This document shows, piece after piece, positions 5,299 through 61,023 of a DNA stretch of 64,000 nucleotides. The position numbers and the translations under genes are program-made. Every line of letters begins with the position of its first letter. Positions within the stretch are counted from its first letter, which is position 1. This DNA is from Candidatus Wolfebacteria bacterium (lineage in GTDB: Bacteria; Patescibacteriota; Minisyncoccia; UBA6257; UBA9933): positions 23,406-87,405 of the forward strand of contig JACPIO010000017.1 in NCBI GenBank assembly GCA_016188075.1, written 5' to 3'. The notes below the pieces were generated by a model. That model saw only the letters and a list, made by a program, of their open reading frames with translations, ran no database searches and had not been told where the DNA came from.

Positions 5299-5332
5299 AG
5301 ACGGTAATTGGTAATTAGTAATTAGAAATTTT

Positions 5333-21200: not shown

Positions 21201-23047
21201 CCGGTCGTTGGAGCAGGAGTCTGGGTAGGCGAAGGAGTGGCGCCCACCGCAGAGCTTGACCCTACGGCAATGGACACGCTTTTTTGGTCGCTCAATACAT
21301 TGCTTGAGGGATTGGTATTGCTATAAACGCTGTAAGTTTTCAGAATCAGAGTAATTGTTTTTTGAGTATTGGCGCTGTTCGTTAAACGAACCAAAGCCGG
21401 AAAAGTGCTAATAATAACTCCATAAGGCCCGTTTATAACATGATTGTCCGCCGGATGATGACCGCAATAAACTTGGTTATTAGAAACCAAGACTAACGAA
21501 ACATCGCCGCTATCATTGCCCTGGCATTCAAGAGTAGCGGCGGCAACGTTTGCTTCGGAATTTAAACGGGCAGTTAAAGTATTAGATCCGCCGGAATTTA
21601 CATACGGAGAAAAGGCGCTGAAGCTTGAAAGGGCCGGCGCAGGCGTTGGAGTTGGAGTTGGTGTTGGTGTTGGTGTTGGTGTTGGTGTTGTGGCTGGCGC
21701 GCTAACCGTTATTGTGAACGGGCTAGTTTGAGCCGAACAATTGCTTTCGTCAGACGAAGCACAAGCCCAGCCGTAGAGATAATAATTGCCCGTCGCAAGG
21801 GTTGGTGAGATATTCAGGATATAAGGATTAGCTGCGCCGACGGAGGTCCGTGGAAAAGATGATACGCCATCATATCTCAAGCTAAAGTGATTGACCGTAC
21901 CACTTACGCCAAGAAAGCTAACCTGGATAGAGGTAGCGCCCTGGGTGACGGCGGAGGGGGCTGAAACCGAAGAAAGAGTTGGCGCCGGAGTCGGGGTTGA
22001 CGAGACCGGCGCGCTCACAGTCGCGGTTGTGGTTTTGTATGGAGAAGGGGTGCCGTCGTTTTTGAAAGCAGCTCCTTGGAGTTCATAAGCTCCGGCGGTA
22101 GTGGGTGTAAAAGAAATTCCGGTACAGAATCCGGTTACGGCAGTAGCAGGATTCCATACGGACGTTCCCTGAACTCTATACTGGAACCCGCAGAAATCAT
22201 TACTGGCGTACCCACTAAAGTTTACGGTCATCTGATTTCCAAGCGTCACCGAGTTCGCCGAGATACTGGTGAGGGTTGGAGTGGTTGGCGTCGGAGTGGG
22301 AGCCGGAGAAACCGTAACAGTAACCACGCTATTGCTGGATCTGCTGTTATCAGCGCCCAGGGCATAAAGAGTAAAAGTGACCAATCCGGGAGATATGCTG
22401 CTATTATTTACGGTAACGACATTACTGGAATTACTAACAACGTTGGCAGGAACATTAGGGGTAAATCCCGGAATAGAAATACTGGGGTTATCCGAAGAAA
22501 AAGAAAGCCAGCCGCTTACGGCATTTTGAGCCGAAGTGTTTAAGGTTACGTTCGATCCAGATGGAACCGTGGTTCCGTTCTGAGGCGAAGAAAGAGAGGC
22601 GGTTACCGGCGGAGCAGCGATGGTAAACGTGTCCGTGGTCGCACCAATTGGCATTGATTGGCCGTCTTTGGATCCATTCCAGTATACGTTAACGGTGTGA
22701 GTGCCGACATTATTGAAAGTGCAGGTGGCGCTATAAGATCCGCCGCAGTTATTAAGATAGGTTCCGTCGAGATTCACGGTCATTATGCCAGCAATCCCCC
22801 AATTGGAAGGCGGCTGACTCGGATAAGTTCCGGTTGAATCACTGCGATAAACCGAAGCATTGAGCGTGGCGGTACTTCCCGAGACGGTAACGGCTGTAAA
22901 GTTGCAAAAACCAAAAGTTGACAAAGTGTAGCCCGGCACCGCGGCGCATTTAGTATCGGCCTGGGCTTCTTTTGTCAAAATCCCCCCGAAAACTCCGAGG
23001 AAAACGACCGCTAATAATATAATGAAAAAATACTTAAAATTTTTCAT
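18227..23047 (-). CDS. giant secreted/cell-surface protein (1606 aa) with PG-binding-like domain
   Basis: Signal peptide MKNFKYFFIILLAVVFLGV; many Thr/Pro linkers (TPTPTPTPTPTPTPTPAP), Ser/Thr/Asn-rich beta-rich segments, a Gly-rich stretch. Near the C-terminus is a PG_binding_1-like segment (TQKAQVQECLVSLGYI...FDAVKAFQRDYL...GTGIVGNLT). Confidence 0.7.
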   Translation of the reverse strand: MKNFKYFFIILLAVVFLGVFGGILTKEAQADTKCAAVPGYTLSTFGFCNFTAVTVSGSTATLNASVYRSDSTGTYPSQPPSNWGIAGIMTVNLDGTYLNNCGGSYSATCTFNNVGTHTVNVYWNGSKDGQSMPIGATTDTFTIAAPPVTASLSSPQNGTTVPSGSNVTLNTSAQNAVSGWLSFSSDNPSISIPGFTPNVPANVVSNSSNVVTVNNSSISPGLVTFTLYALGADNSRSSNSVVTVTVSPAPTPTPTTPTLTSISANSVTLGNQMTVNFSGYASNDFCGFQYRVQGTSVWNPATAVTGFCTGISFTPTTAGAYELQGAAFKNDGTPSPYKTTTATVSAPVSSTPTPAPTLSSVSAPSAVTQGATSIQVSFLGVSGTVNHFSLRYDGVSSFPRTSVGAANPYILNISPTLATGNYYLYGWACASSDESNCSAQTSPFTITVSAPATTPTPTPTPTPTPTPTPAPALSSFSAFSPYVNSGGSNTLTARLNSEANVAAATLECQGNDSGDVSLVLVSNNQVYCGHHPADNHVINGPYGVIISTFPALVRLTNSANTQKTITLILKTYSVYSNTNPSSNVLSDQKSVSIAVGSSSAVGATPSPTQTPAPTTGAFTITLDDTSPRGGNLEVLANSQNTTTTILRLASDSYDIDLRRIGLKFGGTNPRAINGLTLWNGAVNVGSANFSASAFLNATFIELTTPVRIPRGSYRLLTIKANIGSGAQVGDTIAVNYNGDNPYFIGNPLNPTPAASSNTLGVIMPDQYYIVPDGYYWLGGRPVAIPGARSAPSTNAGIFRVVQTLSAPSPDSGVADSGPVISSFTAISASNPTPVTSITINSGTTVALNASKRPGLGFSPIITLGCEGNDDNAVTVGYAGREYCGRQGNGPYNFHETLFPAQVLITNSTSTSRTVNIVLRALFSTTAFGQGEIGRRSISVTVGPRTGGPGVVAPGSGAPTSGPLTSPATAQALVPNLGNSNFSLLPDGKTRFNAGESATFTWAAPFCREGQICRDRVKWSYVSQNARIESFNPETQYDLTRGTSVRLTFRDVSELSSLVLRVHTAITGSNVFDTANLLNFEILPAVRGPLFDLYNDSTELRRDSPNNNRSQVVRLQQCLATIPSAQFTLPSSEALGLGTFGPQTSSSVILIQNQFSSEIYTSGGRENGTGIVGTYTKRKLNQLCANQGPIISSTGAGGTVSQAGGGASDTAGPSAGAQGLAEQAEAAATAAAAEAAASGGGPGGIGGTAGGMGGIGGPGSGGAGLPLRRFGGPLDPDISAVNLTTTQKAQVQECLVSLGYINPSAYPDSSIRQFIGHLEDRHYSFDLILNPTFDAVKAFQRDYLRDALIARGLNPNGTGIVGNLTIQKMLQFDVCRRVAGAPATGNPPPTPDTSAFLRVSISPNTASSTQVVMGSVNNSLATFRFANNSAEPIRVDALTITAVSTNNATTPSFQNARLLNSGTVVAGPIIASSTNRDTWVYVFNLSIPAIVPQNSAIELELRADVAPLISGGASSGGQYIFAIGSASDIRAYGRNSNASIPAGIQSAAGNTITVVPAVGYSVTSTPPYATSTPISTSTTLYANPAELIANVSLLQTKIAELLKLFSR

Positions 23048-27031: not shown

Positions 27032-29102
27032 CATCGCTTTTTCTCTCTTTTGCATTAGAATTTTCGGTTACTTGAGGATTGACCCACGAGGCATAATCGC
27101 AGGCGGGATATTTTGAACAGCCGTAGAAAAAACGGCCGCGCTTGGTGCGTTTGCGAACCACTTCACCCTCTGCGCATTTCGGACATTTCATTTTAACGCC
27201 GTTCTCGTCCATCACCACATTTTTTATCGGCTTGGCGTTTTTGCAATCCGGAAAACCCGAGCAAGCCATGAATTTTCCGAAACGGCCGTATTTTATAATC
27301 ATCGGCTTGCCGCATTTTTCGCAATCCTCATCGGTCTTTTCTTCTATGGGTTTTTGCTTTTCCACTTCAAGATATTTTTTTTCCAAATTAACCGAAAACG
27401 GCTCATAAAATTTCCGGATGACATTTTGCCATTTTTCGGCGCCGATCGCGATTTCGTCCAATTCTTCTTCCATCCGGGCCGTAAACTGGATATCGACAAT
27501 TGTCGGGAAATGCTCGGTCAATATTTTATTTACGGCGCAGCCGATTTCGGTTGGCGCGAAACGCCGGTCTTCATTTTTAAGAACGTAATTTCTTTCCTGA
27601 ATCACCGAGATGGTCGGCGCGTAGGTGGAGGGCCGGCCGATGCCGTATTCTTCGAGCGTTTTAATAAGACTGGCTTCGTTGTAGCGCGGAGGCGGTTCGG
27701 TAAAATGCTGAGATGGCAAAACCTCAAGCAGTTTCAATTCTTCTTTTTCCGCGAGCGCCGGCAGTTCTTTTTCCTCGAATTGCGTGGGCCAAATTTTCAA
27801 AAACCCGTCAAATTTTAGAATACTGCCGGTGGTAATTAGTAAATAGTAATTAGCAATTAACGAGTTTTTGGCTTCTATCTCCACCCTTGTGGAGTCAAAA
27901 ATTGCTTGGGGCAGCTGCGAGGCGATAAAACGTCTCCAAATCAATTCGTAAAGTCTTTTTTCTTGATTATTTTCTCCCTGAAATTTTTCCGGAGCAAAGT
28001 CCGGCCGCGTGGGCCGAATAGCCTCATGCGCTTCTTGCGCCAAACGCGACTTTGTTTTAAAAAAGCGCGGGGCTTGACTCGCGTATTCTTTTCCCAATTT
28101 TTTTTCAATCCAGCTTTTAGCGGCCAGAACGGATTCGCGGGAAAGATTCACCGAGTCTGTCCGCATATAAGTGATTAAGCCGTTTTCGTAAAGACTCTGG
28201 GCGAACCGCATTGTTTGCTTAGCCGAACAGCGGAGGCGGCGAGACGCTTCCTGCTGAAGAGTCGATGTGGTAAAAGGCGGTAAGGGATTTCTTTTTAACT
28301 CTTTCTTTTCAATTTTGGAAACTCTAAAATCGCATTGCTTCAAATCAATGGCTATTTTATCCGCCTCCTCTTTTGTTTTAATTCCCAGCTTCGGAACAAC
28401 TTCGCCGTTTATTTTATGAAGCAGCGCAGTAAATTTATTTTCCGCGCCTGCCCCGAGTTTTACCGAGGGGTCGTTCCGCGCTGACTTCCGCGTTATTCCG
28501 CGCGATTGAAGCAGAGCTTCAATCGACCAGTATTCCTCCGGTTTGAAATTTTCAATCTCTTCTTCTCTTTCCGCAATCAAACGAAGCGCCACTGACTGCA
28601 CTCGGCCGGCCGAAAGCCGTCTCATCACCTTTTCCCACAAAAATGGCGAGAGTTTGTATCCCACCAAACGATCCAAAACGCGGCGCGCCTGTTGGGCGTC
28701 CACCAAACTCATATTAACTCCGCGAGGATTTTTTAAAGCTTCCTCAATGGCGGACTTGGTAATTTCGTGAAAAACGATTCTTTGGACCTTTGCCGTCCCC
28801 TCCTCATTTAATCCGAGCGCCTGGATTAAGTGATAGGCAATGGCTTCTCCTTCTCTGTCTTCGTCCGTTGCCATGATGACGGCATCGGCTTTTTCCGCTT
28901 CTTTTTTCAGCTGATTGACGCGCTTTTTGGACCTAATCGGAATGATATAGTGGGGTTCGAAATTTTTCTCAACATCAATTCCGATCTTGCTTTTCGGTAG
29001 ATCGCGAATATGACCCATGGTCGCAAGAACTTCATATTCTTTCCCAAGAAACCCTTTTAAGGTTTTTGATTTAGTTGGACTTTCCACTAAAATTAGTTTC
29101 AT
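27003..29102 (-). CDS. topA: DNA topoisomerase I
   Basis: 699 aa; TOPRIM N-terminus (MKLILVESPTKSKTLKGFLG...GHIRDLP) and C-terminal C4 zinc ribbons. In-frame insertion IANYYLLIT encoded by the TAATTAC repeat at 27831-27864. The 3' end runs into the GC-rich repeat, so the exact stop is uncertain. Confidence 0.9.
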   Translation of the reverse strand: MKLILVESPTKSKTLKGFLGKEYEVLATMGHIRDLPKSKIGIDVEKNFEPHYIIPIRSKKRVNQLKKEAEKADAVIMATDEDREGEAIAYHLIQALGLNEEGTAKVQRIVFHEITKSAIEEALKNPRGVNMSLVDAQQARRVLDRLVGYKLSPFLWEKVMRRLSAGRVQSVALRLIAEREEEIENFKPEEYWSIEALLQSRGITRKSARNDPSVKLGAGAENKFTALLHKINGEVVPKLGIKTKEEADKIAIDLKQCDFRVSKIEKKELKRNPLPPFTTSTLQQEASRRLRCSAKQTMRFAQSLYENGLITYMRTDSVNLSRESVLAAKSWIEKKLGKEYASQAPRFFKTKSRLAQEAHEAIRPTRPDFAPEKFQGENNQEKRLYELIWRRFIASQLPQAIFDSTRVEIEAKNSLIANYYLLITTGSILKFDGFLKIWPTQFEEKELPALAEKEELKLLEVLPSQHFTEPPPRYNEASLIKTLEEYGIGRPSTYAPTISVIQERNYVLKNEDRRFAPTEIGCAVNKILTEHFPTIVDIQFTARMEEELDEIAIGAEKWQNVIRKFYEPFSVNLEKKYLEVEKQKPIEEKTDEDCEKCGKPMIIKYGRFGKFMACSGFPDCKNAKPIKNVVMDENGVKMKCPKCAEGEVVRKRTKRGRFFYGCSKYPACDYASWVNPQVTENSNAKERKSDEPAGEARPL

Positions 29103-29114
29103 ATTCTATTTCTA

Positions 29115-30230
29115 TTATATAGAGATATTATATTTATAAATACCAGATTTCGAAGCTTGATGTTGAATGCTATTCCAATTTCGATTAGGCAACATTGACA
29201 AAATCTCGGTTTTGGATAAGAGGGGATAAAATTGTTTAATAACTTGTTTTTCCTTTTGCGAATAATTTTTTCTATATTTCATTTCAATTTTTATACACCG
29301 TTTTGCCGCCTGAAATTTTCTTTCTATATATAAATAAGCATTGGTATAGAGATAACCTAAGAGAGTTTTAGCAGAATTACACCGATAAGCAATGTGGCAT
29401 AAATTATACTTCCCGTCTTTAGATATAGATTTTGTAACAGTAGAGTAAATATTAAATTTTTTAAGAAAATAGTTTCGGATAAAAGTTACAGTATTTTCTC
29501 CGCCACAAATACTTAAGTTGGGATAGCCTAGTTTATCAATCGAAATGCCCCCATCTCCATCTACAATGCCGCGAATAAAATGTCTAACATATTTTCCGGG
29601 GATATCTGGAATTTTTTCGCGAAGGCTTTTTTGATAAGAAATTTTAAGAATTTTTAAATCATCAACAATTTTTTGGCTGGTAATACATAAATAGGCCGCA
29701 CTTTTAACTAAAGATATTTTATGTTGAGAAGAAAGTTCCCTTTTTATTTTTTCTAAAATATCGACATCTCGTTTTTGAACACCAAATTTCAAAGCATCGC
29801 TATATCCCTCATGCGTTCCTCTAGTAATACAGCCATCAGCCAAGGTAAAACCAAGAACATAAGCCATATTGGGCGACCACTTTTGGAAATAAGATTCATT
29901 GACGTTTATTTTTGGTTTATTAGTACTCCGTTTCAATCCCAATCTCTCTCCTTGAGCTAAGATAGCCGACCACGATCTTTTGGGTAAAAAATTTAACAAT
30001 TCGCCCTCGGTAGAATCTTTAAAATATTTTTTAAGTATTTCATTTTCTTCTCGCTGCCATAATTTTGCGGATGACAAACTAAGACTTAGGGCTTTTGCGA
30101 CTATCGTATCCCTGGTACGCCCAGGGAATTTTTCTGCTATATCTTTGACCCTGAATTTTGGATATAAGGCTATTAAGAGCTCGACTTCTTTATCAGACCA
30201 ATAATGATATTTAATACTTCTATTACCCAT
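29115..30230 (-). CDS. free-standing LAGLIDADG-family homing endonuclease
   Basis: 371 aa; two LAGLIDADG motifs (LGFTLADGC and IRGIVDGDGGIS) with flanking helical W..E..L..Y repeat modules. Very AT-rich gene between topA and dprA. Confidence 0.75.
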   Translation of the reverse strand: MGNRSIKYHYWSDKEVELLIALYPKFRVKDIAEKFPGRTRDTIVAKALSLSLSSAKLWQREENEILKKYFKDSTEGELLNFLPKRSWSAILAQGERLGLKRSTNKPKINVNESYFQKWSPNMAYVLGFTLADGCITRGTHEGYSDALKFGVQKRDVDILEKIKRELSSQHKISLVKSAAYLCITSQKIVDDLKILKISYQKSLREKIPDIPGKYVRHFIRGIVDGDGGISIDKLGYPNLSICGGENTVTFIRNYFLKKFNIYSTVTKSISKDGKYNLCHIAYRCNSAKTLLGYLYTNAYLYIERKFQAAKRCIKIEMKYRKNYSQKEKQVIKQFYPLLSKTEILSMLPNRNWNSIQHQASKSGIYKYNISI

Positions 30231-30329
30231 CTTTACATTTTAGTATATTTTGCGGGAAATTCAACGATAACGAGATTCATAAAACATAAAACATTTGCGC
30301 TTCATGCTTTATGCTTCATGATTTGTGAA

Positions 30330-31214
30330 TCATATCGTATATCCTCTTTCCGACTCCTTTATAAAATTATTGATTACCAGCATCGCGACTGTTTGACTTA
30401 CGACTTGCGGTTCCAGTTTAGTGAGCTCAATAATTTTGTCAATTCGAACCGGCTCCCCCGCCCCTTCAATAACTCTTAAAACCATTAATTGTTTCTCGTC
30501 TTTAATTTTTTGTGATTTCGTATTTTCGTATATTCGTACCTTTTCGTATTTCGTAGCCAGATTGAGGTCTTCCATTATATCTTCCGCCGAAGCAACCAAT
30601 CTCGCCCCGTCCCTGATTAAAGCGTGCGATCCCTTATAGTTGGGGTGCTCGACCGGTCCGGGAAAAACAAAAACTTCGCGACCCTGTTCAGCCGCGAGCC
30701 GCGCCGTAACCAAAGCGCCAGACTCCCTGGGAGCTTCGATTATAATGGCGGCCAAAGAAAGACCGCTTACGATTCTATTTCGTTCAAGAAATCGGTGCGG
30801 CAGGACCGGCGTCCCCGGAGAATATTCCGAGATAATCGCTCCGCCGGCTTGGAGAATCTGATTGGCTAAATTTTCATTCTGCTCAGGATAAATAGAATCG
30901 AGGCCGTTTCCAAGAACGGCAATGGTCGGCGATCCGCCGCGCAAACTGCCTTGGTGAGCCGCGGTGTCAATACCCATCGCCAAACCGCTTACGACAACGA
31001 GTCCCCGGCGCGACAAATCTTCGGCTAATCGTTTGGCCATATTTTTTCCGGCTTCGGTGGCTTTTCTCGTTCCCACAATGGCAACGCGCGGAATGTCGTA
31101 AGCGGGCAATTTCCCCAAAAAATAGAGCCCAGACGGCGCGCCTCGTATTTCCGAAAGCAAGGCCGGATAGCGGCTATCGCCCCTCTCTAAAAAATTTATT
31201 TCCGCTTTTGACAT
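30330..31214 (-). CDS. dprA: DNA processing protein DprA (Smf)
   Basis: 294 aa; ...VAIVGTRKATEAGKNMAKRLAEDLSRRGLVVVSGLAMGIDTAAHQGSL... Carries an in-frame (ttcgta)n insertion at 30521-30570. Confidence 0.85.
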   Translation of the reverse strand: MSKAEINFLERGDSRYPALLSEIRGAPSGLYFLGKLPAYDIPRVAIVGTRKATEAGKNMAKRLAEDLSRRGLVVVSGLAMGIDTAAHQGSLRGGSPTIAVLGNGLDSIYPEQNENLANQILQAGGAIISEYSPGTPVLPHRFLERNRIVSGLSLAAIIIEAPRESGALVTARLAAEQGREVFVFPGPVEHPNYKGSHALIRDGARLVASAEDIMEDLNLATKYEKVRIYENTKSQKIKDEKQLMVLRVIEGAGEPVRIDKIIELTKLEPQVVSQTVAMLVINNFIKESERGYTI

Positions 31215-36047: not shown

Positions 36048-37862
36048 ATGCTCAATCAAGAACTCGCCAAAATTTTTTACGAGATCGCTCTCTACCTCCA
36101 AATGGATGAAGTGGCTTTCAAACCGCAGGCTTACGAGCGGGTCGGGGCGAGCTTAGAAAATTTATCCCAAAGCGTTGACTCTATTTATAAAAAAGAAGGT
36201 CTGATGGGACTCGAGAAAATTCCCGGCGTGGGCCGGGGCATCGCGGAAAAAATCATAGAGTACTTAGAAAACGGTCAAATTGACGAACACGAAAAATTAA
36301 AAAAGAAAATTCCGGTGAATCTGGAGGAGCTTTCAGCCATCGAAGGACTGGGGCCCAAAAGCATAAAAAAACTCTATCACAAACTCGGCGTTAAAAATCG
36401 TGAGGATTTAGAGAGTGCGGCTCGTAAACACAAAATCCGCGACCTCGAAGGTTTTGGCGAAAAAAGCGAAGAGAGAGTTTTAAAAAGCATTGAATTTTTG
36501 AAAAAATCCAAGGGCCGATTTATTTTGGGTTTTATTATGCCTGCGGTGCGCGAAATTGAAAATCAGCTTGGGCGACTTAAGGAGACTAAAAAAATCGTTG
36601 TTGCCGGCTCGGTTCGGCGCCGCAAAGAAACCATCGGCGACGTGGATATATTAATTGTCTCGGATACACCGCGACCTCTGATGGATTTTTTTATAAAAAT
36701 GCCTGAAGTGATTCAGGTTTGGGCTCATGGCGAAACCAAATCCAGCATTAAGCTTCAAAACGGCTTAGATATTGATTTAAGGGTGGTGCCGGAAAAATCC
36801 TACGGCGCGGCTCTAAATTATTTTACCGGCTCCAAAGAACACAATATAGCTTTACGGGAAATCGCTATTAAAAAAGGATATAAATTGAATGAATACGGAC
36901 TCTTTGGATACGGTAGGGGCCGAGCTTCCCGAGGTTCAACCTCCCAAATATTAAAGTCGATTCGCGAGGAGGTTGAACCTCGCAAAAATTGGCGTCAGAT
37001 CGCCGGCACGACCGAAGAGGAAATTTACAAATTACTGGGCCTTGATTATATTGAACCGGAACTGCGGGAAAACACCGGAGAAATCGAAGCGGCTAAAGCT
37101 GATAAACTACCCAAACTGATAAACTACTCTAATCTCCAAGGCGATCTTCAAATTCAAACCAACTGGACTGACGGAAAAAATTCCATCGAAGAAATGGCCC
37201 GGGCGGCAATGGAGGCTGGCCTTAATTACATCGCGATCACGGATCACAGCAAAAGATTAGCAATGACCGGCGGACTGGACGAGAAAAAAATCCAAAAGCA
37301 ATGGCAGGAAATCGACAGAGTTAATAAAAAGCTTCATGCTTCAGGCTTCAAGTTTCATGTTCTTAAAGGCAGTGAGTGCGATATTTTGAAAGACGGATCG
37401 CTTGATTTACCGGATGAAATTTTATCCAAGCTTGATGTCTGTGGAGCCGCGATTCATTCTTACTTTAACTTATCGCGCAAAGACCAGACCGAGCGATTAA
37501 AAAGAGCGATGCGAAATCCGAACGTGGATATTATTTTTCACCCGACCGGTCGAAAAATCCAATCCCGGGAGCCGTATGATTTAGATATTGACGAAATTAT
37601 CAAAACCGCCAAAGAAACCAACACGATTTTGGAAGTCGATTCTTACCCGGACCGACTGGACCTGAAAGACGAGCACATTCGAAAATGCGTGGAGGCCGGA
37701 GTCATGCTCGCGATTGATTCGGACGCGCATTCCGTAAGCCATCTCCCCTATCTTGAATACGGCATCGCGCAGGCGAGACGCGGGTGGTGTGAAAAAAAAG
37801 ATATTATAAATACAAGACCATTACCAGAGATGCTAAAATTGCTAAAAGACAAACAAGAATAA
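36048..37862 (+). CDS. polX: DNA polymerase X family protein with C-terminal PHP domain
   Basis: 604 aa; HhH motifs, Pol-beta nucleotidyltransferase core (GSVRRRKETIGDVDILIV), PHP domain (ITDHSK..., HPTGRKI...). In-frame insertion KLHASGFKFHVLKG at 37336-37370. Confidence 0.85.
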   Translation: MLNQELAKIFYEIALYLQMDEVAFKPQAYERVGASLENLSQSVDSIYKKEGLMGLEKIPGVGRGIAEKIIEYLENGQIDEHEKLKKKIPVNLEELSAIEGLGPKSIKKLYHKLGVKNREDLESAARKHKIRDLEGFGEKSEERVLKSIEFLKKSKGRFILGFIMPAVREIENQLGRLKETKKIVVAGSVRRRKETIGDVDILIVSDTPRPLMDFFIKMPEVIQVWAHGETKSSIKLQNGLDIDLRVVPEKSYGAALNYFTGSKEHNIALREIAIKKGYKLNEYGLFGYGRGRASRGSTSQILKSIREEVEPRKNWRQIAGTTEEEIYKLLGLDYIEPELRENTGEIEAAKADKLPKLINYSNLQGDLQIQTNWTDGKNSIEEMARAAMEAGLNYIAITDHSKRLAMTGGLDEKKIQKQWQEIDRVNKKLHASGFKFHVLKGSECDILKDGSLDLPDEILSKLDVCGAAIHSYFNLSRKDQTERLKRAMRNPNVDIIFHPTGRKIQSREPYDLDIDEIIKTAKETNTILEVDSYPDRLDLKDEHIRKCVEAGVMLAIDSDAHSVSHLPYLEYGIAQARRGWCEKKDIINTRPLPEMLKLLKDKQE

Positions 37863-41597: not shown

Positions 41598-41641
41598 ATG
41601 CGGTAATTAATACTCTTTTCCCTAACTACTAATTACTAATT

Positions 41642-41990
41642 TGGTGGAGATGAGGGTATTGAAACCCTGTCCAAAAATTAACTTTAAAAATTTCTACAGG
41701 TTTAGTCCCGATGAATGAAGGATTAAGGAATGAAATCGGGACGAAAAATCCTTAATTCTTTGCCGATTTTTGTCCCCGCCAAAATTGGCAATTTAGGCGG
41801 GCTAGTCTAATTTATTACACCCGAACCTCTTGATTCAGACACCCAAGAGCGGATGCCGCTTAGGCAAAAGCGAAAGCGGGAGCTAATCTGTTATTGGCAG
41901 ATATAGTTTTGATTCGATGATTTTCAAGGTGACGAATCATCCTTGACCTGCGATTTTTAAAGATCATTTCTGTCGAGGCCTTGCATCCCC
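41642..41990 (-). ncRNA. ssrA: tmRNA (SsrA)
   Basis: 5' GGGGATGCAAGGCCTCGACAG... and 3' ...GGACAGGGTTTCAATACCCTCATCTCCACCA. G3-U70 wobble in the acceptor (Ala identity), T-arm-like hairpin. Candidate tag ORF GCC AAT AAC AGA TTA GCT CCC GCT TTC GCT TTT GCC TAA (ANNRLAPAFAFA*). Adjacent to smpB. Confidence 0.75.
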
Positions 41991-47386: not shown

Positions 47387-49913
47387 TTATTTTCGGCGGT
47401 TCATCAACTTCTCCAGCTCGTAAACCATCTCGGTGGTTTTTATAATCGCGTCCGGGTTCAAAGACATTGATTCGATTCCTTCTTCAATCAAAAACTTGGC
47501 GAATTCCGGAAAAGTCGAGGGCGCGTCGCCGCAGATACCGACATACTTTTTGGCTTTACGGCATTTACGGATTACTTCGGCAATAAGTTTTTTTACTGAT
47601 TCGTCGCGTTCGTCGGCAATTCCTTTAATTTGGCCGCCGGCGTCGCGGTCAATGCCAACCGCAAGTTGGGTTAAATCATTCGAACCAATACTCATTCCGT
47701 CAAAAATTTTCAAAAACTCGTCGGCTAAAATGACGTTCGAGGGAATCTCGGCCATCACGTAGACTTTCAACGCAGACTCACGCTGACTTTTTTCCGCGTA
47801 GTTCCGCGTTAGTTTCCGCGTAGTTCCGCGAAAAAGTCCTTGCTTTGCCATAATGGCAAGGACTTTTTGTCCTTCCTCGGCTGTTCGGCAAAAGGGAATC
47901 ATCACCGCGATATTATCCAATCCCATTTCCTCGCGGACTTTTTTAATAGCCTTAATCTCTAAAATAAAGGCCGGCGCGAAATCCGGATGGTAATAGCGGG
48001 AGGCGCCGCGCCAGCCAATCATCGGATTCTCTTCTTGCGGTTCGTAGAGCTCGCCGCCGATTAAAGTGCGATATTCGTTAGTTTTAAAATCGGAGAATCG
48101 GACAATCACCTCTTTGGGATAAAAAGCCGCCCCGATTTTTGCGATACCATAAGCGAGTTTGTCAATATAAAATTGGGTTTTATCATTGTAGCCGATAGTC
48201 CGCTTTTCAATCTCTTTTATGATTTGTTTTAGATATTTAGTATTTTTGAATTTAGAATTTATTTGAAACTTGGAAATTGGAAATTGGAAATTCCTCTTCT
48301 TGATTTTTTCAAAATCAAGAATGAGGTTCGGATGTATTCCGATTTCCGAAGCGATAATAAACTCTTCCCGAGCCAATCCCACTCCATCGTTTGGCAAAAA
48401 CGATTTTTCAAAGGCTGTGTCCGGGGTCGCGATATTCATCGTGATTTTTGTTTTGGGCCGAGGGATTTTTTTGATATTGTGCTCGACTATTTTGAATTTC
48501 AGTACGCCGGAATAAACCAGGCCATCGCTCCCGGAACAGTCCACTGTAATCATCTCGCCGGTTTTAATTTTCCGCGTGGCGTTTTCCGTCCCCACAACAC
48601 AGGGAATTCCCAGATTGATGAATATTTTTCGTGTCTAAGATCACGCGGGCAAGGCCTGTCGCGATTTTACTCCCAACCGACGCGCCTTTGACGAGTAATT
48701 TCGGATTTCGGATTGCGGATTGCGGATTTTCTAACTTATATTCTTTTACTTTTGAATAATCGCGTTCCGCGTGAATTGTTTCCGGTCGGGCTTGGACAAT
48801 AAAAAGCTTCCCGGTTTTTCCGTCTTTGGCCCATTCCAAATCCATGGGCGTCCATTTTTTATGCCTTTTAGTATAATGTTCTTCAATTAAAACCGCCCAG
48901 CGAGCCAATTTTAGAATTTCTCCATCGTTTAAAATAAAATTTTCTTTTTCTTTTTGGGAGGTTGATACGATTTTTGTGTTTTTGATGGTTCGACGCGGCT
49001 CACCACTGGTGGTTCGACGCCGCCGACCACCAGTGCCGCTGGCTTCTCCATAAATCATCTTTCGATTTTTTACCCCCAATCTTTTATCGATAATCGGCAC
49101 AAGCGCGGACTGACGCTGACTTGACGCGGACTGACGCGAAATATCTCTGCGTAGGTCTGCGTGTAGTCCGCGTTGTTCTGCGAGTTTTGGTTTAAAAACT
49201 AAAAATTCGTCCGGCGTTACTTCGCCCTGAACAATCATTTCGCCCAAGCCCCACGAACCGTTAATGATAATTAAATCTTTGAACCCGGACTCGGTGTCAA
49301 GAGTGAATATCACGCCGGATGAACCTAAATCCGAACGCACCATTTTTTGAACGCCAACAGATAGAGCAACCTTAAAATGATCGAATCCTTTGTCGACGCG
49401 GTAAGAGATCGCCCGATCGGTAAAAAGCGAAGCCATGGCGGAGCGAACCGCGAGCAAAATTTCTTGCGAGCCCCGAATGTTTAAATACGTTTCGTGCTCC
49501 CCGGCAAAAGAAGCTCCGGGCAAATCCTCGGCCGTAGCAGAAGAGCGGACAGCCGTATCGGTATTTTTGCCGTACTTTTTTTCCATTTCGGCGCAGGCTT
49601 GCGCGATGTCTTTCTCGAGATCTTTGGGAAAATTTTTGGAACGAATTTCCTCGCGGATGAGCTTGGCGCGTTTTTCCAAATCATGAAGATTTTTTGTGTC
49701 CAATCCCTTTAAGGCAGTTTTAATAAATTTTTTTAGGCCGGTTTTGTCAAGAAAATAGCGGTAAGCAGTCGCGGTTACGACAAATCCGCCGGGGATATTA
49801 ATGCCCTTTAATTCCAGCTTTTGAATCATCTCGCCCAAAGAGGCATTTTTTCCGCCGACTTCCGGAACGTCTTTAATGGAGACCGCAGAAAGATTTTTAA
49901 TAAAAGGCTTCAT
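47387..49913 (-). pseudogene. ppsA: phosphoenolpyruvate synthase-like gene, disrupted (two ORF fragments 48564..49913 and 47387..48595)
   Basis: N-fragment has the PEP/pyruvate-binding domain and ends ...IATGLARVILDTKNIHQ. C-fragment begins at the ...ELGIPCVVGTENATRKIKTGEMITVDC motif of the phospho-His domain and continues into the TIM-barrel PEP-utilising domain. The frame changes at about 48610 and the ~55 codons that normally carry the catalytic His are absent. Several in-frame low-complexity insertions. Confidence 0.65.
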
Positions 49914-52118: not shown

Positions 52119-53945
52119 TTAATTATTACTAATTACTTTTTTTGCCTCTTCCCAAATAAGCGGATCGTTGTGCTTTTCTTTCAAAAGATACCACCATTCG
52201 GCGCCCCAGAGATAGTAATCTTCAAAACCAGTCTGTTTGGCATATTCTATTGTATCCCGAAAATAATCCGGACTAAAGAGGGCAATTTGTTCCTCGTAAG
52301 TTAATTCCGGAATTTCCTTCGCGCCCCACGGCTCGGCCTGAAGCTCAATCACAATAAACTTCTTTTCGTCATCGCGAGTAAGCCATCGAACCGCTCTTTC
52401 TTTTAACGGAAAATATTTTGGATCGATATGGTAATCAATTGGTCCAAGAATCGGACCGATAAAGCGCGGGTAAGCTTTCCGGTACATTGTTGTTCCAAAA
52501 ACATCGCCGGCGGCCGCCGCCTTGTGCCACAATCCAAACTCGCCGCCGTCGGTTATAAGCACCGGCCGCGATCCATCGAGATTTTTTACTATTTTAACTT
52601 CTTCTTCCAAAAATTTTTCGCCGCGGGAAGGACACTTGCCAAACATTAAAAAGGGTTCGTTTTCCACTTGCCACATTTCTATTGCCGAATCGTTCTTGTA
52701 TTTATTAACAAGTATTTCTATGTAATCCCGCAGAGCGATTTCCCGATCTCCGGTTTTTAAATTTTTTGCCCATTCCGGGATATGACATTCCGGCCAGCGC
52801 GGCGCCTTCATGCCTAAAGTTAAAATAATCTTAATTCCTTTTCCCCGGGCTTGATTAAGCTGCCAATCTAAATCGGAAAAATCATAGCTGGTTCTGTTTT
52901 TTTCAATTTTATCCCAATAAGCGACCAATCGAATTTTTTTCGGCCTTAAGTCGTCGACGATGGCCGTAAAATTTTCCCGCCAATTCAAATTCAGCTGTTC
53001 GGAAAATTTTTGAGAAAAAGTAACGCCCCATCTTAAGGGTCGGTTGGGATCAATGGCAATGCCCCGACCGTATTCCACGGAACCGAGCATTATCAATCCC
53101 GCGGCAATAAAAATAAGAGCGACAATCTTGCCCAAAAGCGCCCGGCCTCGAAATCGCTCGCGGAGCAATAACCAGCCGGCGAAAAAAACCACAATGTATT
53201 TAAAACTTTGCGTGGCGTCAACCAGGGCCGGCTGGCTTAGAAACAAAGCGTAGGAAAAAAGCAAAGAACCTAATCCGGCGTAGGCGCGGTTCATAAAATA
53301 AAGAGAATTATTGGAGATTTCGGCTTTTCCGGTTTCGGCAAAAAATCTCTTTCGCAAACGAGGAATCAAAAGAAGAATTAACACAAAGGCGATGGCGCCA
53401 AGCTTCAACCAAATAAAACCATTGATAAAGGCCGTGTTCTCAAAAACAATCTTGGCTAAAACCAAATAAAAGCCAAGGCCAAGAGCGCTGCCGACCGCGT
53501 AGATTAAAAGCGATAAGCGCTTAACCTTCCGCTCGGCAAAAAAAAGAATCAAAGTGGCAATACCCAAAAAGACAAACCCGATTATCTGCCCTAAATCCAA
53601 GGAATATTCCAAGAATATCGAACTAAGCACCAAAGTAAAAATGGGAGATAACCCGCCGATGAACGGTATGGTTTCCGACGCCTCGGTCACGACTAATCCC
53701 GAATAAAGAAGAAAAATCGAAAGCATTAAAGCCGCCCCGGCCGCAAAACAGAGCAAAATTATTTTTAAAGGCAAAAGAGCAAAGCCAAAAGGGACAAGAA
53801 CCAAGGCAAACCCGCCCACGAGCCCGAGCCAGAAAGTATAAACCCAGGGATCAAAAAACTTTCGCCTTAAAAGAATTCTGTCAAAAACCGAAGAAGTGCC
53901 GGCGATAAACTGCGAACCAACGGCAAAGGTAAGCCAGTCAAACAT
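52119..53945 (-). CDS. fusion protein: polytopic membrane domain + glycoside hydrolase (GH5-like) domain
   Basis: 608 aa; N-terminal ~290 aa with about 10 TM helices; C-terminal domain has the WQVENEP acid/base motif and a later ELQAEPW motif typical of clan GH-A. Last codons (KKVISNN*) are encoded by a TAATTAC-type repeat. Confidence 0.5.
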   Translation of the reverse strand: MFDWLTFAVGSQFIAGTSSVFDRILLRRKFFDPWVYTFWLGLVGGFALVLVPFGFALLPLKIILLCFAAGAALMLSIFLLYSGLVVTEASETIPFIGGLSPIFTLVLSSIFLEYSLDLGQIIGFVFLGIATLILFFAERKVKRLSLLIYAVGSALGLGFYLVLAKIVFENTAFINGFIWLKLGAIAFVLILLLIPRLRKRFFAETGKAEISNNSLYFMNRAYAGLGSLLFSYALFLSQPALVDATQSFKYIVVFFAGWLLLRERFRGRALLGKIVALIFIAAGLIMLGSVEYGRGIAIDPNRPLRWGVTFSQKFSEQLNLNWRENFTAIVDDLRPKKIRLVAYWDKIEKNRTSYDFSDLDWQLNQARGKGIKIILTLGMKAPRWPECHIPEWAKNLKTGDREIALRDYIEILVNKYKNDSAIEMWQVENEPFLMFGKCPSRGEKFLEEEVKIVKNLDGSRPVLITDGGEFGLWHKAAAAGDVFGTTMYRKAYPRFIGPILGPIDYHIDPKYFPLKERAVRWLTRDDEKKFIVIELQAEPWGAKEIPELTYEEQIALFSPDYFRDTIEYAKQTGFEDYYLWGAEWWYLLKEKHNDPLIWEEAKKVISNN

Positions 53946-55203: not shown

Positions 55204-55204
55204 T

Positions 55205-56140
55205 TTAGTAGCAAATTTCACGGCCGGAAAATTTCGACTGGATTTTAATGACGCCGGCGCCGGGGACGACCTCGCCGATGATTTCGGCATCCAAAGAATG
55301 AAGCATCGGGAGGTATTGAATAGCGTCATATTTAGACATCCCCAAAATAAAACCAATGCCGCAGTTGAACGTTTGGTACATTTCCTCGTCGGTTATTCCG
55401 TGTCCGTAAATTTCATAAAATATCCGATGGGGCCGAAGGTTGTAATTAGAGCCGATGTTGATGTCGGCATCCGGCGGAAGAATATCTTTCAATTTCGTAA
55501 AAGCGCCGCCGGTTATATGCATCATTCCGTGGATATTGATTTTATCGAGGAGCGACCAAACATTTTTAAAATAGATTTTGGTCGGGAAAATAAATTCGGG
55601 CCGAGGCTCTTCGCCGAACAATTCCCGAACCTTGGTAAAACCATTCGAATGAAGACCATTGCTCGTGAACCCCACCAGAAGATCGCCGACTTGAAGCTCA
55701 TTCGCTTTTATTTCTTTCACGAAGCCAAGCATCGCGATACCGATCTCCAACCCTTCCTGGGTATCGTGAATAGCGGTTTCGCCGCGCGGAATCACAATTT
55801 GCCGCTCCCGACACTCCAAGACCAAACTGCTTAAAATTCCCAAAATGGCGTCCTTGTCGTCTCTGGGCAAAAAAACATGATCAATCAAGGCGTAAGGCAT
55901 CGCCCGCGCCATCAACATATCGTTTAAATTCATCGCCATGGCGTCAAGGACGGCGTTCTTAAAAGTTCGCCTCTTCCAGTGATAGATCCCCTTGGTGCCG
56001 ACGCCGTCCGCGTGGTGAAATTCCGGATAGAAAAATTTTTTGTAAAGCACGCCGTCTTTGACCAAGGCGTAGGGCGTTTCCCATGTTTGCCTCACCAAAG
56101 AGACAATCTCGTCTTTATAAGGCTTGGTCGGATTGTACAT
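55205..56140 (-). CDS. AIR-synthase-related (PurM-like) protein
   Basis: 311 aa; ADGVGTK motif and PurM-like N/C domains; cannot distinguish PurM from ThiL/HypE-like from sequence alone. Confidence 0.55.
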   Translation of the reverse strand: MYNPTKPYKDEIVSLVRQTWETPYALVKDGVLYKKFFYPEFHHADGVGTKGIYHWKRRTFKNAVLDAMAMNLNDMLMARAMPYALIDHVFLPRDDKDAILGILSSLVLECRERQIVIPRGETAIHDTQEGLEIGIAMLGFVKEIKANELQVGDLLVGFTSNGLHSNGFTKVRELFGEEPRPEFIFPTKIYFKNVWSLLDKINIHGMMHITGGAFTKLKDILPPDADINIGSNYNLRPHRIFYEIYGHGITDEEMYQTFNCGIGFILGMSKYDAIQYLPMLHSLDAEIIGEVVPGAGVIKIQSKFSGREICY

Positions 56141-60912: not shown

Positions 60913-61023
60913 AAGTCATGATTCAAGATTTATGATTTAGGATTTATGAAGAGATGTCGCACATTAATTTTAGCACATGCGAGTTTACTTATCTATCGAT
61001 TTGGTATTATTATGGAAATAACT

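Follow-up and report, generated by a model that had tools for sequence, protein, structure and literature searches.

The short DNA element shared by the polX and folD genes of this Candidatus Wolfebacteria bacterium is best described as a heptanucleotide simple-sequence repeat (SSR), that is, an array of some 30 bases made of about 4-5 imperfect copies of one 7-base unit, which lies in frame in core genes and would be renewed by misalignment and shuffled by short-patch recombination. We give this reading as a whole a probability of about 0.6. The habit is genome-wide in this tiny, uncultured Wolfebacteria/CPR bacterium and its relatives, and the arrays are not mobile insertions. A bias towards heptamer repeats is already known in bacteria; here the repeats are embedded in frame in core genes. 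The window referred to below is the whole stretch of 64,000 nucleotides (64 kb) that was analysed.

In polX (ORF 36048-37862, identified by its match to the Thermus PolX 3au2, E ~6e-59) the array occupies 37331-37361 on the plus strand and consists of the units GCTTCAT, GCTTCAG, GCTTCAA and GTTTCAT followed by GTT. Its product, K428-V438 (..KLHASGFKFHV..), is part of a PHP-domain loop, and 37329-37370, from the codons AAG CTT CAT to AAA GGC, reads KLHASGFKFHVLKG. The first array of folD, site 1, lies at 62781-62815 on the plus strand (TTCATGC, TTCAGGC, TTCACGC, TTCATGA, TTCACGA). In the frame of ORF 62747-63190, positions 62777-62815 run from ATT ATT CAT to TCA CGA and are translated as IIHASGFTLHDSR. 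The array itself encodes IHASGFTLHDSR. Judged from a model of the orthologue P0126 (pLDDT 92.6), this stretch takes in the last part of a helix, then a loop of 7 residues and then the opening residues of the NADP-binding domain's first strand. Each array holds about 4.5 tandem copies of GCTTCAN, and the two have 25 of 27 bases in common, the shared stretch on direct reading being TTCATGCTTCAGGCTTCA[A/C]G[T/C]TTCATG. The exact 16-mer CATGCTTCAGGCTTCA is found at 37335 in polX and at 62783 in folD. With up to three mismatches it has nine matches in the window against 0.32 expected, a number reached in 0 of 100 shuffles, several of the nine being the polX and folD arrays matching themselves shifted by 7 bases.

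Two further arrays of the same kind lie between genes. One, at 30299-30335, is made up of GCTTCAT, GCTTTAT, GCTTCAT, GATTTGT and GAATCAT and belongs to the GCTTCAN unit family; it is preceded by CATAAAA repeated 2.4 times at 30278-30294, and the spacer that holds it, 99 bases long, separates dprA (30330-31214, minus strand) from ORF 29115-30230 (minus strand). The other, at 60916-60949 between an integrase-family gene (60004-60912, minus strand) and glyA, is a drifted relative with the units GATTCAA, GATTTAT, GATTTAG and GATTTAT (from its first base, TCATGAT TCAAGAT TTATGAT TTAGGAT TTA) and has TCATGATTCA in common with the folD array. Tandem Repeats Finder recovers all four at period 7, with 4.1 copies in polX (37331-37359), 4.9 in folD (62781-62814), 3.1 at 30299-30320 and 4.6 at 60918-60949. 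The repeats are imperfect, with 81% matches.

Three 7-base units make 21 bases or 7 codons, so that an in-frame array is read in all three phases and each unit specifies one heptapeptide and its cyclic permutations. GCTTCAN gives H-A-S-[C/G]-F-x-[L/F] and AATTACC gives Q-L-P-I-T-N-Y. For GCTTCAN only one coding orientation is available, because the reverse strand always contains TGA. Equal units therefore give equal peptides in unrelated proteins and nothing further is needed; the encoded peptides are probably tolerated by-products without specific function. The initial annotation had claimed that the same short DNA motif gives nearly the same peptide in the unrelated PolX and FolD and that it has intergenic relatives, and both claims hold on reanalysis. 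It had located the right objects, with coordinates a few bases off from the direct reading given above. That the motif sits in the same frame in both genes is also correct as an observation, but it is automatic for any in-frame 7-base array.

The arrays in polX and folD are part of a much larger set. At a looser threshold the 64 kb contain at least 24 period-7 arrays, of which 16 lie inside genes and eight between genes, and the 16 coding arrays drop to about zero after codon shuffling within genes. Although 16 of the 24 are intragenic, the density of arrays per base is about four times higher between genes than inside them. Tandem Repeats Finder returns about 28 rows at period 7. In a stricter scan of the window there are 11 arrays at period 7 compared with 0-3 at any other period and about none in shuffles. 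These counts measure the over-representation of period 7 in this genome on 64 kb only. The initial annotation had noted neither the tandem-heptamer nature of the repeats nor the presence of at least 24 arrays with many different units. In relatives (371 kb from 64 distinct loci) we found 100 arrays at period 7. Every other period gave 0-18, except for period 14, the doubled period 7, with 86. Their lengths peak at 25-35 bases; two arrays of 52-53 bases are about 21 above the usual 31. The census of relatives gives 72 canonical units among 121 arrays. AATTACY, AAAATTG and GCTTCAN are recurrent units. Arrays are short (about 4-5 units) even in intergenic DNA, where expansion is not forbidden. 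An assembly artefact was considered and rejected, as identical arrays recur in independent assemblies (ENA, JGI, Logan). The GCTTCAN unit is not specific to this lineage but generic across Bacteria: arrays made purely of GCTTCAC, GCTTCAG, GCTTCAA or GCTTCAT are found in Pseudomonas, Xanthomonas, Nostoc, Planctomycetota and Acidobacteriota as well as in several CPR groups, and a scan of genome collections for GCTTCANGCTTCANGCTTCA gave at least 120 stretches, with no further contig of this genome among those listed, which shows a widespread unit and is not a taxonomic census.

Several of the other arrays in the window use the AATTACY family. A second array in folD, site 2 (63065-63092, plus strand; CAATTAC, CAGTTAC, TAATTAC, CAATTAC), encodes QLPVTNYQLL; in many orthologues this site is QLPITNYQLL, and in L006 it is a perfect (CAATTAC)x4. 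In gyrA the AATTACC unit at 10147-10173 (plus strand) encodes a 10-residue peptide and thus yields the equal peptide in a third protein, and a second gyrA array, at 9781-9803, has the unit ACAGACT. An AATTAC-family array in topA (27832-27859, minus strand) encodes LIANYYLLIT. Between genes, an AATTACY array of 3.9 copies (1504-1530) adjoins one of AATAGTA with 4.7 copies (1459-1491), the pair (1459-1530) lying directly upstream of ORF 1539-1814, and GGTAATT, the reverse complement of AATTACC, is repeated four times at 5303-5330. The two ORFs for pyruvate phosphate dikinase contain AATTTCC at 48263-48292 (NFQFPISKFQ) and AATCCGM at 48698-48728 (NPQSAIRNPKL), both on the minus strand. The tmRNA gene (41642-41990, minus strand) is followed, directly from its CCA end, by AATTAGT AATTAGT AGTTAG (41622-41641, minus strand), and at the orthologous spot L001 has an ATAGTAA array. 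In glyA (SHMT) there is a small array of AAATCAA with 2.3 copies (61776-61791, plus strand); the one glyA site at which relatives have strong period-7 arrays is about 70 bases upstream of it. Four arrays on the minus strand, at 56516-56555, 57032-57061, 58251-58279 and 59072-59105, lie in the 1207-residue ORF 56140-59763, which was considered as rpoB and is instead ileS, isoleucyl-tRNA synthetase. Compared with the human IleRS, the first (aa 1070-1083) is gap-free with no extra residues, the second (aa 901-911) adds no residues and follows directly on a part in which the sequence studied here is shorter by 5 residues, the third (aa 495-505) lies where a section without alignment to the human protein begins, and the fourth (aa 220-231) coincides with 6 additional residues.

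The arrays are not insertions but occupy sequence-variable, length-constrained segments of housekeeping enzymes. The FolD site-1 segment aligns without gaps to the solved structure of C. jejuni FolD (3p2o), and 55 of 57 orthologues have this segment at one and the same length. In PolX all 22 aligned orthologues have residues at the site and differ there only by a length class of 3 residues, the loop as a whole varying by only 3-4 residues, and relatives at 66-74% protein identity have a decayed version of the polX array at the equivalent site; four genomes have decayed versions of one array there. The initial annotation had implied a family of elements inserted in frame and had named orthologue alignment as a check on it. 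The alignments show the peptide segment present in orthologues, with the PolX and FolD sites occupied in all of them, and the reading as an inserted element does not hold. Presence in some orthologues with clean absence in others, the pattern of an RPE- or SDR-like mobile mini-element, was found neither at FolD site 1 nor in PolX, and the arrays have neither defined ends nor a hairpin. We found no conserved termini and no inverted repeats in the arrays, only direct repeats, and no palindrome, hairpin or RNA structure in the polX and folD coding arrays, which fold worse than shuffles (z = +0.97 and +1.17). What is found is at least three head-to-tail copies of a 7-base unit and an excess of period 7, both features of a heptanucleotide SSR; described heptamer SSRs (Xanthomonas, Nostoc, Beggiatoa) are mostly intergenic, and these arrays are not, but this is a habit and not part of the definition. 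They are not phase-variable coding repeats of the neuO type either, being imperfect and in core genes, with no copy-number variants found between near-identical contigs.

Comparison of relatives shows that it is the periodicity, rather than the sequence, that is kept. FolD site 1 lies above the 99th percentile of the background for period 7 in 43 of 47 distinct orthologues and site 2 in 27 of 47, and the self-match at period 7 for site 1 is 0.62 against a background of 0.26. Within folD, windows of high period 7 are nearly confined to sites 1 and 2, and within glyA to a single site. The units at FolD site 1 include CTACAAA, CTTACAA, CCTACGA, ATTGAAA, CTTAAAT and CATGCTT, and some orthologues have perfect arrays at the folD sites, for example (CTACAAA)x4.5. 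Since equivalent sites are arrays in most orthologues with different units, the whole array must change in concert. Several FolD orthologues are without arrays at these sites, with no obvious consequence.

Arrays are swapped as cassettes of about 55-60 bases between genomes that are otherwise 95% identical. L147 and L149, at 95.4% identity, have entirely different site-1 cassettes, and the replaced patch reaches about 15 bases past the array, as expected for allelic recombination. Among close relatives mismatch density is 5.3% inside arrays against 1.6% outside, and L134 and L006, which are 99.1% identical within folD, differ by eight substitutions crowded into 25 bases. Site-1 identity is nearly uncorrelated with that of the backbone (r = 0.20): the window and L005 are 67% identical overall and match at 29 of 30 bases at the array, and in genes that are otherwise 65-68% identical, nucleotide identity peaks at the arrays and their 3' flank. 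An identical array of 29-32 bases, GAAAATTGTAAATTGAAAATTGAAAATTT, occupies folD site 1 in some lineages and site 2 in other lineages, and L165 has it in both places. The folD sequence also has an apparent 38-base duplication. Units are shared at 3.5% within a locus and 1.9% between loci, compared with 0.3% for random heptamers. Recurring units and whole identical arrays at different sites exceed what local slippage alone predicts. dprA, which we count towards recombinational exchange, is among the genes of the window. There were no indels of 7, 14 or 21 bases in about 140 kb of contig pairs at least 93% identical, only ones of 1-6, 10 and 15 bases; ongoing slippage is therefore not demonstrated, and the arrays are not length-hypermutable in the short term. 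Over longer distances a change in copy number is hinted at by the two arrays of 52-53 bases in relatives and by L007 and L159, which have an expansion of an 8-base unit, about 8-10 residues, at folD site 2. As a separate observation, GC-rich hairpin insertions of 20-21 bases occur in or next to arrays of relatives (L202 compared with L195, L205 compared with L161).

We suggest that repeat units misalign while DNA is replicated or repaired, and that this both gives rise to arrays and maintains their period. It could result in slippage, which would survive only as in-frame steps of three units, and in length-neutral templated correction. Selection would then retain those products that keep the frame, have no stops and fit the length of the segment. 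Variants may pass between lineages by short-patch homologous recombination at the conserved flanks, and ectopic copying between arrays of one genome probably also spreads them; such copying would account for the 25 of 27 bases shared by polX and folD. Classical slippage fits poorly with length-neutral renewal in essential genes, since a step of one unit changes the frame, and slippage does not account for why the period is 7. Neither diversity-generating-retroelement (DGR) type mutagenic homing, considered since the replacement is length-neutral, nor transposon footprints (7-base target duplications) nor telomerase-like addition has a pointer in the data, and all were set aside; among the annotated ORFs of the window neither a reverse transcriptase nor, in the sequence, a template repeat was noticed, and a period of 7 is not a DGR trait.

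The alternative closest to the idea of the initial annotation is a miniature mobile or copy-paste element, in which heptamer cassettes of about 30 bases from donor arrays, including intergenic ones, overwrite tolerant gene segments by gene conversion or template switching, so that the polX, folD and intergenic copies share descent. The polX and folD arrays agree not only in 25 of 27 bases but in the order of variants at the seventh position of the unit (T, G, A/C, T), and this fits such copying, as do the GAAAATTGTAAATTGAAAATTGAAAATTT array at both folD sites, the sharing of units at 6-10 times the random level (more within a locus than between loci), the intergenic arrays of matching families in the window and the whole cassettes replaced between 95%-identical genomes. 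We nevertheless regard it as unlikely. The PolX and FolD sites show no insertion relative to orthologues, the arrays lack conserved termini and inverted repeats and are less structured as RNA than shuffled sequence, the many different units at equivalent sites fit evolution in place, and the polX array is old, being common to relatives at 66-74% protein identity. Some of the identity is also forced by the single coding orientation, the three phases and the avoidance of stops (TGA to TGT in AAAATTG arrays), and avoidance of Cys (TGC to GGC) probably forces more, while the L147/L149 patch extends past the array as in allelic recombination. A related conjecture, of which we are similarly doubtful, is that in these Parcubacteria all heptamer arrays of a genome form one exchanging pool, with length-neutral rewriting of tolerant segments of essential genes by copy-choice or short-patch template switching over about 30 bases. 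If true, core enzymes would carry interchangeable cassettes that give new peptide sequence in all three phases, a previously undescribed mutational mechanism and a handle on the bacterial preference for 7 bases.

The persistence of periodicity at equivalent sites over deep divergence while the sequence changes, the peak of nucleotide identity at arrays and their 3' flank and the low RNA structure could also suggest a functional nucleic-acid signal. The 7-base repeats might be read by, for example, a cold-shock-type single-strand-binding protein with one heptamer per monomer, and B. subtilis CspB can bind heptamer direct repeats (PMC4679880); or repeat RNA that stays unstructured might adjust translation where domains meet. 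With 72 canonical units in 121 arrays there is no common sequence to recognise, placement in many unrelated genes and between genes is inconsistent, array-free orthologues show no obvious consequence and this analysis identified no candidate reader protein, all of which makes a signal very improbable. Coincidence or a cause at the protein level, with similar structural needs (helix end, turn, strand) and codon bias making the likeness of the DNA secondary, is effectively refuted. Both peptides do precede a beta-strand (VLKG in PolX, VAVVG in FolD), at the turn that leads into it from a helix, and one 16-base repeat in 64 kb is not very improbable (about one expected pair, by our estimate). However, protein constraints act at multiples of 3 bases and cannot give a 7-base period, codon shuffling abolishes essentially all coding arrays, perfect (CTACAAA)x4.5 and (CAATTAC)x4 arrays occur at the folD sites, and identity at 25 of 27 bases is expected in the window only at the order of 1e-3 (also an estimate).

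The reading as a heptanucleotide SSR has wider consequences. That bacteria have too many heptanucleotide repeats was recognised in 2007 and is still unexplained, and most of the cases described lie between genes and are difficult to compare across species. Arrays at fixed codons of universally conserved enzymes can be aligned base by base between orthologues over hundreds of metagenomic genomes, and thereby array birth, homogenisation, exchange and decay become directly measurable. They indicate that mutational bias alone can replace 10-12 residues of an essential protein and leave its length as it was. Heptamer arrays may explain some of the odd low-complexity peptides of CPR bacteria, such as QLPITNY, IENCKLK and HASGF, and they are a warning that such shared peptides are not evidence for mobile elements, domain homology or horizontal transfer.

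Among known systems, the model behind the initial annotation is that of the Rickettsia palindromic elements (RPEs), reportedly described by Ogata et al. in 2000 as selfish repeats inserted in frame in protein-coding genes. RPEs are palindromes of 100-150 bases that add 30-50 residues and show presence or absence between orthologues. Like them, the arrays are a repeated DNA family inside unrelated conserved proteins, translated and tolerated at surface sites; unlike them, they are direct repeats of about 30 bases with no hairpins and no net insertion. The small dispersed repeats (SDRs) of Nostoc punctiforme, said to have been described by Elhai et al. in 2008, are reportedly 21-27 bases long and associated with tandem heptameric repeats. 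Here the likeness is in very small repeats found in many contexts including genes, and the GC-rich mini-insertions of 20-21 bases in relatives resemble SDRs; SDRs are discrete, with defined ends and hairpin potential, and are seen as insertions, whereas GCTTCAN arrays are neither discrete in this way nor inserted. Phase-variable coding heptamers share the 7-base unit in coding sequence, with read-through only at a multiple of three units, and slippage is their established mutational mechanism; they include AAGACTC in neuO (PMC13001214) and GGTGCCC evolved in pflu0185 of Pseudomonas fluorescens (bioRxiv 10.1101/2024.05.01.592015), the two sources that document heptanucleotide-repeat slippage within coding sequence. 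Such repeats are perfect and vary from cell to cell; many are long (3-53 copies), and they lie at the 5' end of accessory genes. The arrays described here, in contrast, are imperfect, have 4-5 units and lie within core enzymes, where a frameshift would be lethal, and near-identical contigs show no variation in copy number.

The closest relatives are the bacterial heptamer SSRs, which PMC4679880 and PMC4692102, citing Mrazek 2007, give as the most abundant class of long SSR in most genomes, with polymerase slippage as the hypothesis. Known examples are the STRR of heterocystous cyanobacteria and GGGAATC of Xanthomonas (PMC4692102) and TAACTGA of Beggiatoaceae and cyanobacteria (PMC4679880). A literature search on heptamer or 7-bp repeats in CPR, Parcubacteria and Patescibacteria found nothing specific to these groups. 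As in the known examples, the arrays here are short head-to-tail runs of few 7-base copies, many and dispersed, with period 7 favoured and a few preferred units per genome. They are likewise kept between the same genes in relatives with varying length and sequence, and occasional arrays in ORFs of those systems also give heptapeptide repeats, for example LSVISYQ for reversed TAACTGA. The described heptamer SSRs are overwhelmingly intergenic, occur mostly in large genomes and use one or three units, whereas here many units are used and two thirds of the arrays lie in frame in conserved housekeeping genes (gyrA, topA, ileS, folD, glyA, polX) of a small-genome CPR bacterium. Also unlike the described cases, native sequence is replaced without a change in segment length, and orthologous codons keep their arrays while the unit turns over.

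The 604-residue ORF at 36048-37862 has the domain content of PolX and matches Thermus PolX (3au2) with an E value of about 6e-59. At 37329-37370 it reads AAG CTT CAT GCT TCA GGC TTC AAG TTT CAT GTT CTT AAA GGC (KLHASGFKFHVLKG), and at 62777-62815 folD reads ATT ATT CAT GCT TCA GGC TTC ACG CTT CAT GAT TCA CGA (IIHASGFTLHDSR). The loci have an exact 16-mer (CATGCTTCAGGCTTCA) in common and by direct reading are identical at 25 of 27 bases. Both peptides that the initial annotation ascribed to an in-frame element family are thereby recovered, as are its intergenic copies of the motif (30299-30335 and 60916-60949). Both arrays were assigned period 7 by Tandem Repeats Finder, the one in PolX dividing into the units GCTTCAT GCTTCAG GCTTCAA GTTTCAT GTT and the one in FolD into TTCATGC TTCAGGC TTCACGC TTCATGA TTCA. 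The repeat family is real, but it is not an inserted element and its common frame is a matter of arithmetic. Three units of seven bases make 21 bases, or seven codons, so an in-frame array cycles through all three phases and arrays of one unit encode cyclic permutations of one heptapeptide: H-A-S-C-F-M-L for (GCTTCAT)n and Q-L-P-I-T-N-Y for (AATTACC)n. On the reverse complement GCTTCAN always has TGA and AATTACC has TAA, and these stops leave a single coding orientation. These two points, which can be read off the sequence itself, account for HASGF being common to PolX and FolD and LPITNY to GyrA and FolD. Deviations from the pure units (TGC to GGC; ATG to AAG or ACG; in AAAATTG arrays, in-frame TGA to TGT, TAT, TTA or TCA) are changes that selection on the coding sequence would be expected to favour. 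The GCTTCAN unit is not peculiar to the lineage of the window, Candidatus Wolfebacteria (Parcubacteria/CPR): GCTTCANGCTTCANGCTTCA has at least 120 matches in species-representative genomes, with a chance expectation, by our own estimate, of about 17 for the whole collection. Among the matches listed are Pseudomonas, Xanthomonas, Nostoc, Planctomycetota, Acidobacteriota, Nitrospirota, Uhrbacteria, Moraniibacteria and Peribacteria, and the arrays among them are mostly pure GCTTCAC, GCTTCAG, GCTTCAA or GCTTCAT.

The reading as inserted elements fails by the criterion that the initial annotation itself set against it, a peptide that belongs to a conserved domain in orthologues. In an alignment of 23 FolD sequences the segment HASGFTLHDSR is hypervariable and constant in length, with extra residues in one sequence only. 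The first of the two array positions of folD (site 1, 62781-62815; site 2, 63065-63092) aligns without gaps to C. jejuni FolD 3p2o ('llkayeidlegkd'). The orthologue P0126 has the identical peptide, and in its AlphaFold model (pLDDT 92.6) this is predicted to take up five residues at the end of helix 132-144, all of the 7-residue loop 145-151 and one residue at the start of strand 152-156; the strand would precede the glycine-rich NADP-binding motif. The PolX array lies in a loop of the PHP domain, with four more residues than Thermus PolX; 22 aligned PolX orthologues fall into two length classes three residues apart, and many members of the long class have 7-residue periodic peptides, for example SKFKIQNSKFKI and LKLKTNNLKLKI, typical of other heptamer units. 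In IleRS, the array at residues 1070-1083 aligns gap-free with human IleRS and adds no residues; that at 901-911 adds none either and comes directly after a stretch five residues shorter than in the human protein; the third coincides with six additional residues, and the fourth is in a stretch without alignment to human IleRS.

Arrays of period 7 occur throughout the window, with about 28 further rows of many units in Tandem Repeats Finder (AATAGTA, AATTACY, ACAGACT, ATTTCGG, GTCGTTT, AGGATTT and GTTGTTN, for example). A self-match scan gave 11 strong arrays of period 7 and almost none in shuffles; the other periods in the range 2-24 gave 0-3 each. A looser threshold gave 24 arrays of 16-40 bases, mostly of about four units, with 16 intragenic and 8 intergenic or at gene edges. 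When codons were shuffled within genes a mean of 7.35 arrays remained, which are the unshuffled intergenic ones only; the coding arrays vanish, indicating that they are no by-product of codon or amino-acid usage. Core genes with arrays are gyrA (2), topA, ileS (4), folD (2), glyA, polX and pyruvate phosphate dikinase (2), and further hosts include an integrase-family (tyrosine recombinase) gene. The tmRNA gene (41642-41990, minus strand, tag ANNRLAPAFAFA) has an array directly after its CCA end (41622-41641), and at the orthologous spot upstream of infC in a relative (L001, 6950-7010) there is an array with a different unit.

The sites persist while their units turn over. In three PolX orthologues of 66-74% protein identity the window's array (CTTCAT GCTTCAG GCTTCAA GTTTCAT) is found at the same codons, progressively decayed: CTTCAT GCTTCAG GCTCCGA GCTTCAA in L001, CTTCAT GCTTCAG GTTCCAT GTTTTGT in L002 and CTTTAT GTTTCAG GTTATAA GTTTCAA in L003. 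FolD site 1 has a period-7 array in every orthologue of a first set, with the unit CATGCTT in the window and L005, CTTAAAT in L006, CATGCTA/CAAACTA in L007 and CAAATTG/CAGATTT in L008. A metagenome scan added 80 folD loci, and in the 47 distinct genes used for statistics the period-7 self-match was 0.62 at site 1, 0.52 at site 2 and 0.26 in the remaining gene, with echoes at periods 14 and 21 and other periods flat. Site 1 exceeded the 99th percentile of background windows in 43 of the 47 and site 2 in 27. Strongly periodic stretches of folD are almost confined to these two sites, and those of glyA to one, just past the TTHKTLRGP motif, with a single exception at the 5' end of the window's own extended glyA ORF. 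Perfect arrays exist, such as (CTACAAA)x4.5, (CCTACGA)x4 and (CAATTAC)x4. Lineages differ by identical changes in every unit; the array evolves in concert within a segment of fixed length. The sampled relatives have this tendency to form arrays in common: in 371 kb, drawn from 64 distinct loci, we counted 100 period-7 arrays and 0-18 of other periods, apart from 86 of period 14, which are period 7 doubled. Array lengths peak at 25-35 bases, with two arrays of 52-53 bases, and some of the sampled relatives have no period-7 array.

Arrays also change faster than their flanks, with a mismatch density in contigs of 85-99.95% identity of 5.3% within arrays and 1.6% outside. Two loci that are 95.4% identical over 2.5 kb, L147 and L149, differ at folD site 1 by a whole cassette, with a CTTACAA-type array (ETILTTYNLQLTTLK) in one and an AAAATTG-type array (QEIIENCKLKIENLR) in the other; a patch of about 55-60 bases has been replaced, which takes in about 15 bases on the upstream side of the array and lies between near-identical flanks. 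Both types are found at folD site 1 in further lineages. Identity at site 1 is almost uncorrelated with that of the backbone (r = 0.20), and some pairs have backbones 62-70% identical and arrays 88-95% identical. The window's folD is 67% identical to that of L005 overall and matches it at 29 of 30 array bases, and with L008 it has a 33-base exact run in common at site 2. In the 99.1% identical folD genes of L134 and L006, eight mostly synonymous substitutions lie within 25 bases (alignment columns 644-668); such clustering is evidence of recombination in very short patches, of only a few tens of bases. We conclude that the array variants behave as alleles shuffled by short-patch homologous recombination through conserved flanks. 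The exchange itself is shown, and transformation is its inferred route; the gene dprA (DNA processing for transformation) is present in the window. As a separate observation, the last 45 bases of the window's folD (63146-63190), encoding an unusual C-terminus (SLCLHQKS and stop), are identical to those of L007 (protein P0125), with the genes otherwise 68% identical and other orthologues having KLNQ-type tails.

Arrays may also be copied ectopically between sites, which is the main rival reading and the more novel one, and the same process would explain the 25/27 identity between PolX and FolD. Such copying is suggested by identical arrays with identical ends at two sites: GAAAATTGTAAATTGAAAATTGAAAATTT (IENCKLKIEN) occupies folD site 1 in L142, L149 and L158 and site 2 in a further set that includes L146, L152 and L185, and L165 has it at both positions of one gene. 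Exact sharing of a canonical unit is far commoner among arrays than among composition-matched random heptamers (0.3%), reaching 3.5% for arrays of one locus and 1.9% for those of different loci, the latter figure taking in orthologous sites. Coding constraints force part of this. As to the origin of the periodicity, misalignment of repeat units in replication or repair would create it and keep restoring it. Slippage by a single unit shifts the frame, so that within genes only two outcomes would survive. One would be steps of three units (21 bases), of which the 52-53-base arrays and an expansion at site 2 in L007 and L159 (8-10 residues, 8-base units) are hints. The other would be length-neutral, either transient misalignment with templated substitution or template switching. 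Published work supports slippage at heptamers and remarks on a general heptamer excess. Mrazek 2007, in the summaries of PMC4679880 and PMC4692102, proposed that the stretch gripped by the polymerase may be seven bases long. Heptamer slippage inside genes is on record for neuO (PMC13001214) and for an experimentally evolved locus (bioRxiv 10.1101/2024.05.01.592015). Three observations count against simple slippage: about 140 kb of alignments between near-identical contigs contain no 7n-base indel, arrays are short even in intergenic DNA, and a few units recur. The best explanation overall, to which we give a probability of roughly 0.6, is that these are in-frame heptanucleotide repeats renewed by misalignment and shuffled by short-patch recombination.

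Other repeats and inserted sequences were also seen. About 26-30 residues of PolX (36919-36993, GYGRGRASRGSTSQILKSIREEVEPRKNWR) are an in-frame insertion absent from most orthologues, with a similar one in the orthologue P0002. The insertion has inverted arms of 26 bases and contains two copies, 38 bases apart, of the palindromic GAGGTT[C/G]AACCTC; unlike the heptamer arrays, it looks like a true hairpin-type inserted element. GC-rich hairpin insertions set near-identical relatives apart and behave like very small mobile elements: CTCGCCTCACAGCGAAGCGGG (21 bases, seven residues) within the heptamer array of folD site 1 between L202 and L195, CCTGCCTGCCGGCAGGCGGG (20 bases) upstream of folD between L205 and L161, and a CCCGCC..GGCGGG insert adding ten residues in L132. 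In-frame repeats of period 10-11 with CGCGGAA-like units form a separate class (28474-28507, 47770-47830, 49104-49138 and 58798-58843, in topA, both pyruvate phosphate dikinase ORFs and ileS), encoding peptides of the types RGTTRKLTRNYAEK and AKPQNDAEINAEQRRN; the ileS copy coincides with nine additional residues relative to human IleRS, and similar TRTNAE/TRINAD insertions are present in FolD orthologues. Period-10/20 repeats (TATCTATAAG) lie at 12266-12330, at the start of ORF 12246-12650, and GTTGGT is repeated 7.7 times at 21645-21690 within a 1606-residue ORF (18227-23047). Several genes have an unusual structure. A perfect 38-base tandem duplication in folD (62679-62754, GAAGCGTTTCGGCTGGGAAAAAGCAAAATTTTGCCGCC x2) breaks it into ORFs 62325-62843 and 62747-63190; removal of one copy restores an intact 275-residue FolD, and the duplication could have arisen recently by real mutation, vary within the population or be an artefact of assembly. 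Pyruvate phosphate dikinase (47387-49913, minus strand) is divided between two ORFs that overlap, one with PPDK_N and the other with PEP-utilizers_C. The frame changes near 48564-48595 and the central phosphohistidine swivel domain is apparently missing, so that a pseudogene or a misassembly is possible. In ileS (56140-59763), residues 493-727 (about 235) separate blocks that are about 25 residues apart in human IleRS and are probably a large lineage-specific insertion or divergent domain. Three successive ORFs of 608, 472 and 311 residues, overlapping end to end at 52119-56140 (minus strand), may represent a single large gene disrupted by frame changes.

What is surprising here is not the coincidence of HASGF in two proteins but that 7-base microsatellites evolve at fixed codons of core enzymes with their length unchanged. 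No account of heptamer arrays in genes of CPR bacteria turned up in the part of the literature covered. The arrays do not fit RPE- or SDR-like in-frame mobile elements as regards insertion polymorphism and structure, nor phase-variable coding repeats as regards perfection and variability. The closest known class is that of the heptanucleotide SSRs (STRR, GGGAATC, TAACTGA), with which the arrays have in common a tandem 7-base unit, three or more copies and an excess of period 7, but the intergenic habit of that class is not shared by the arrays of the window.
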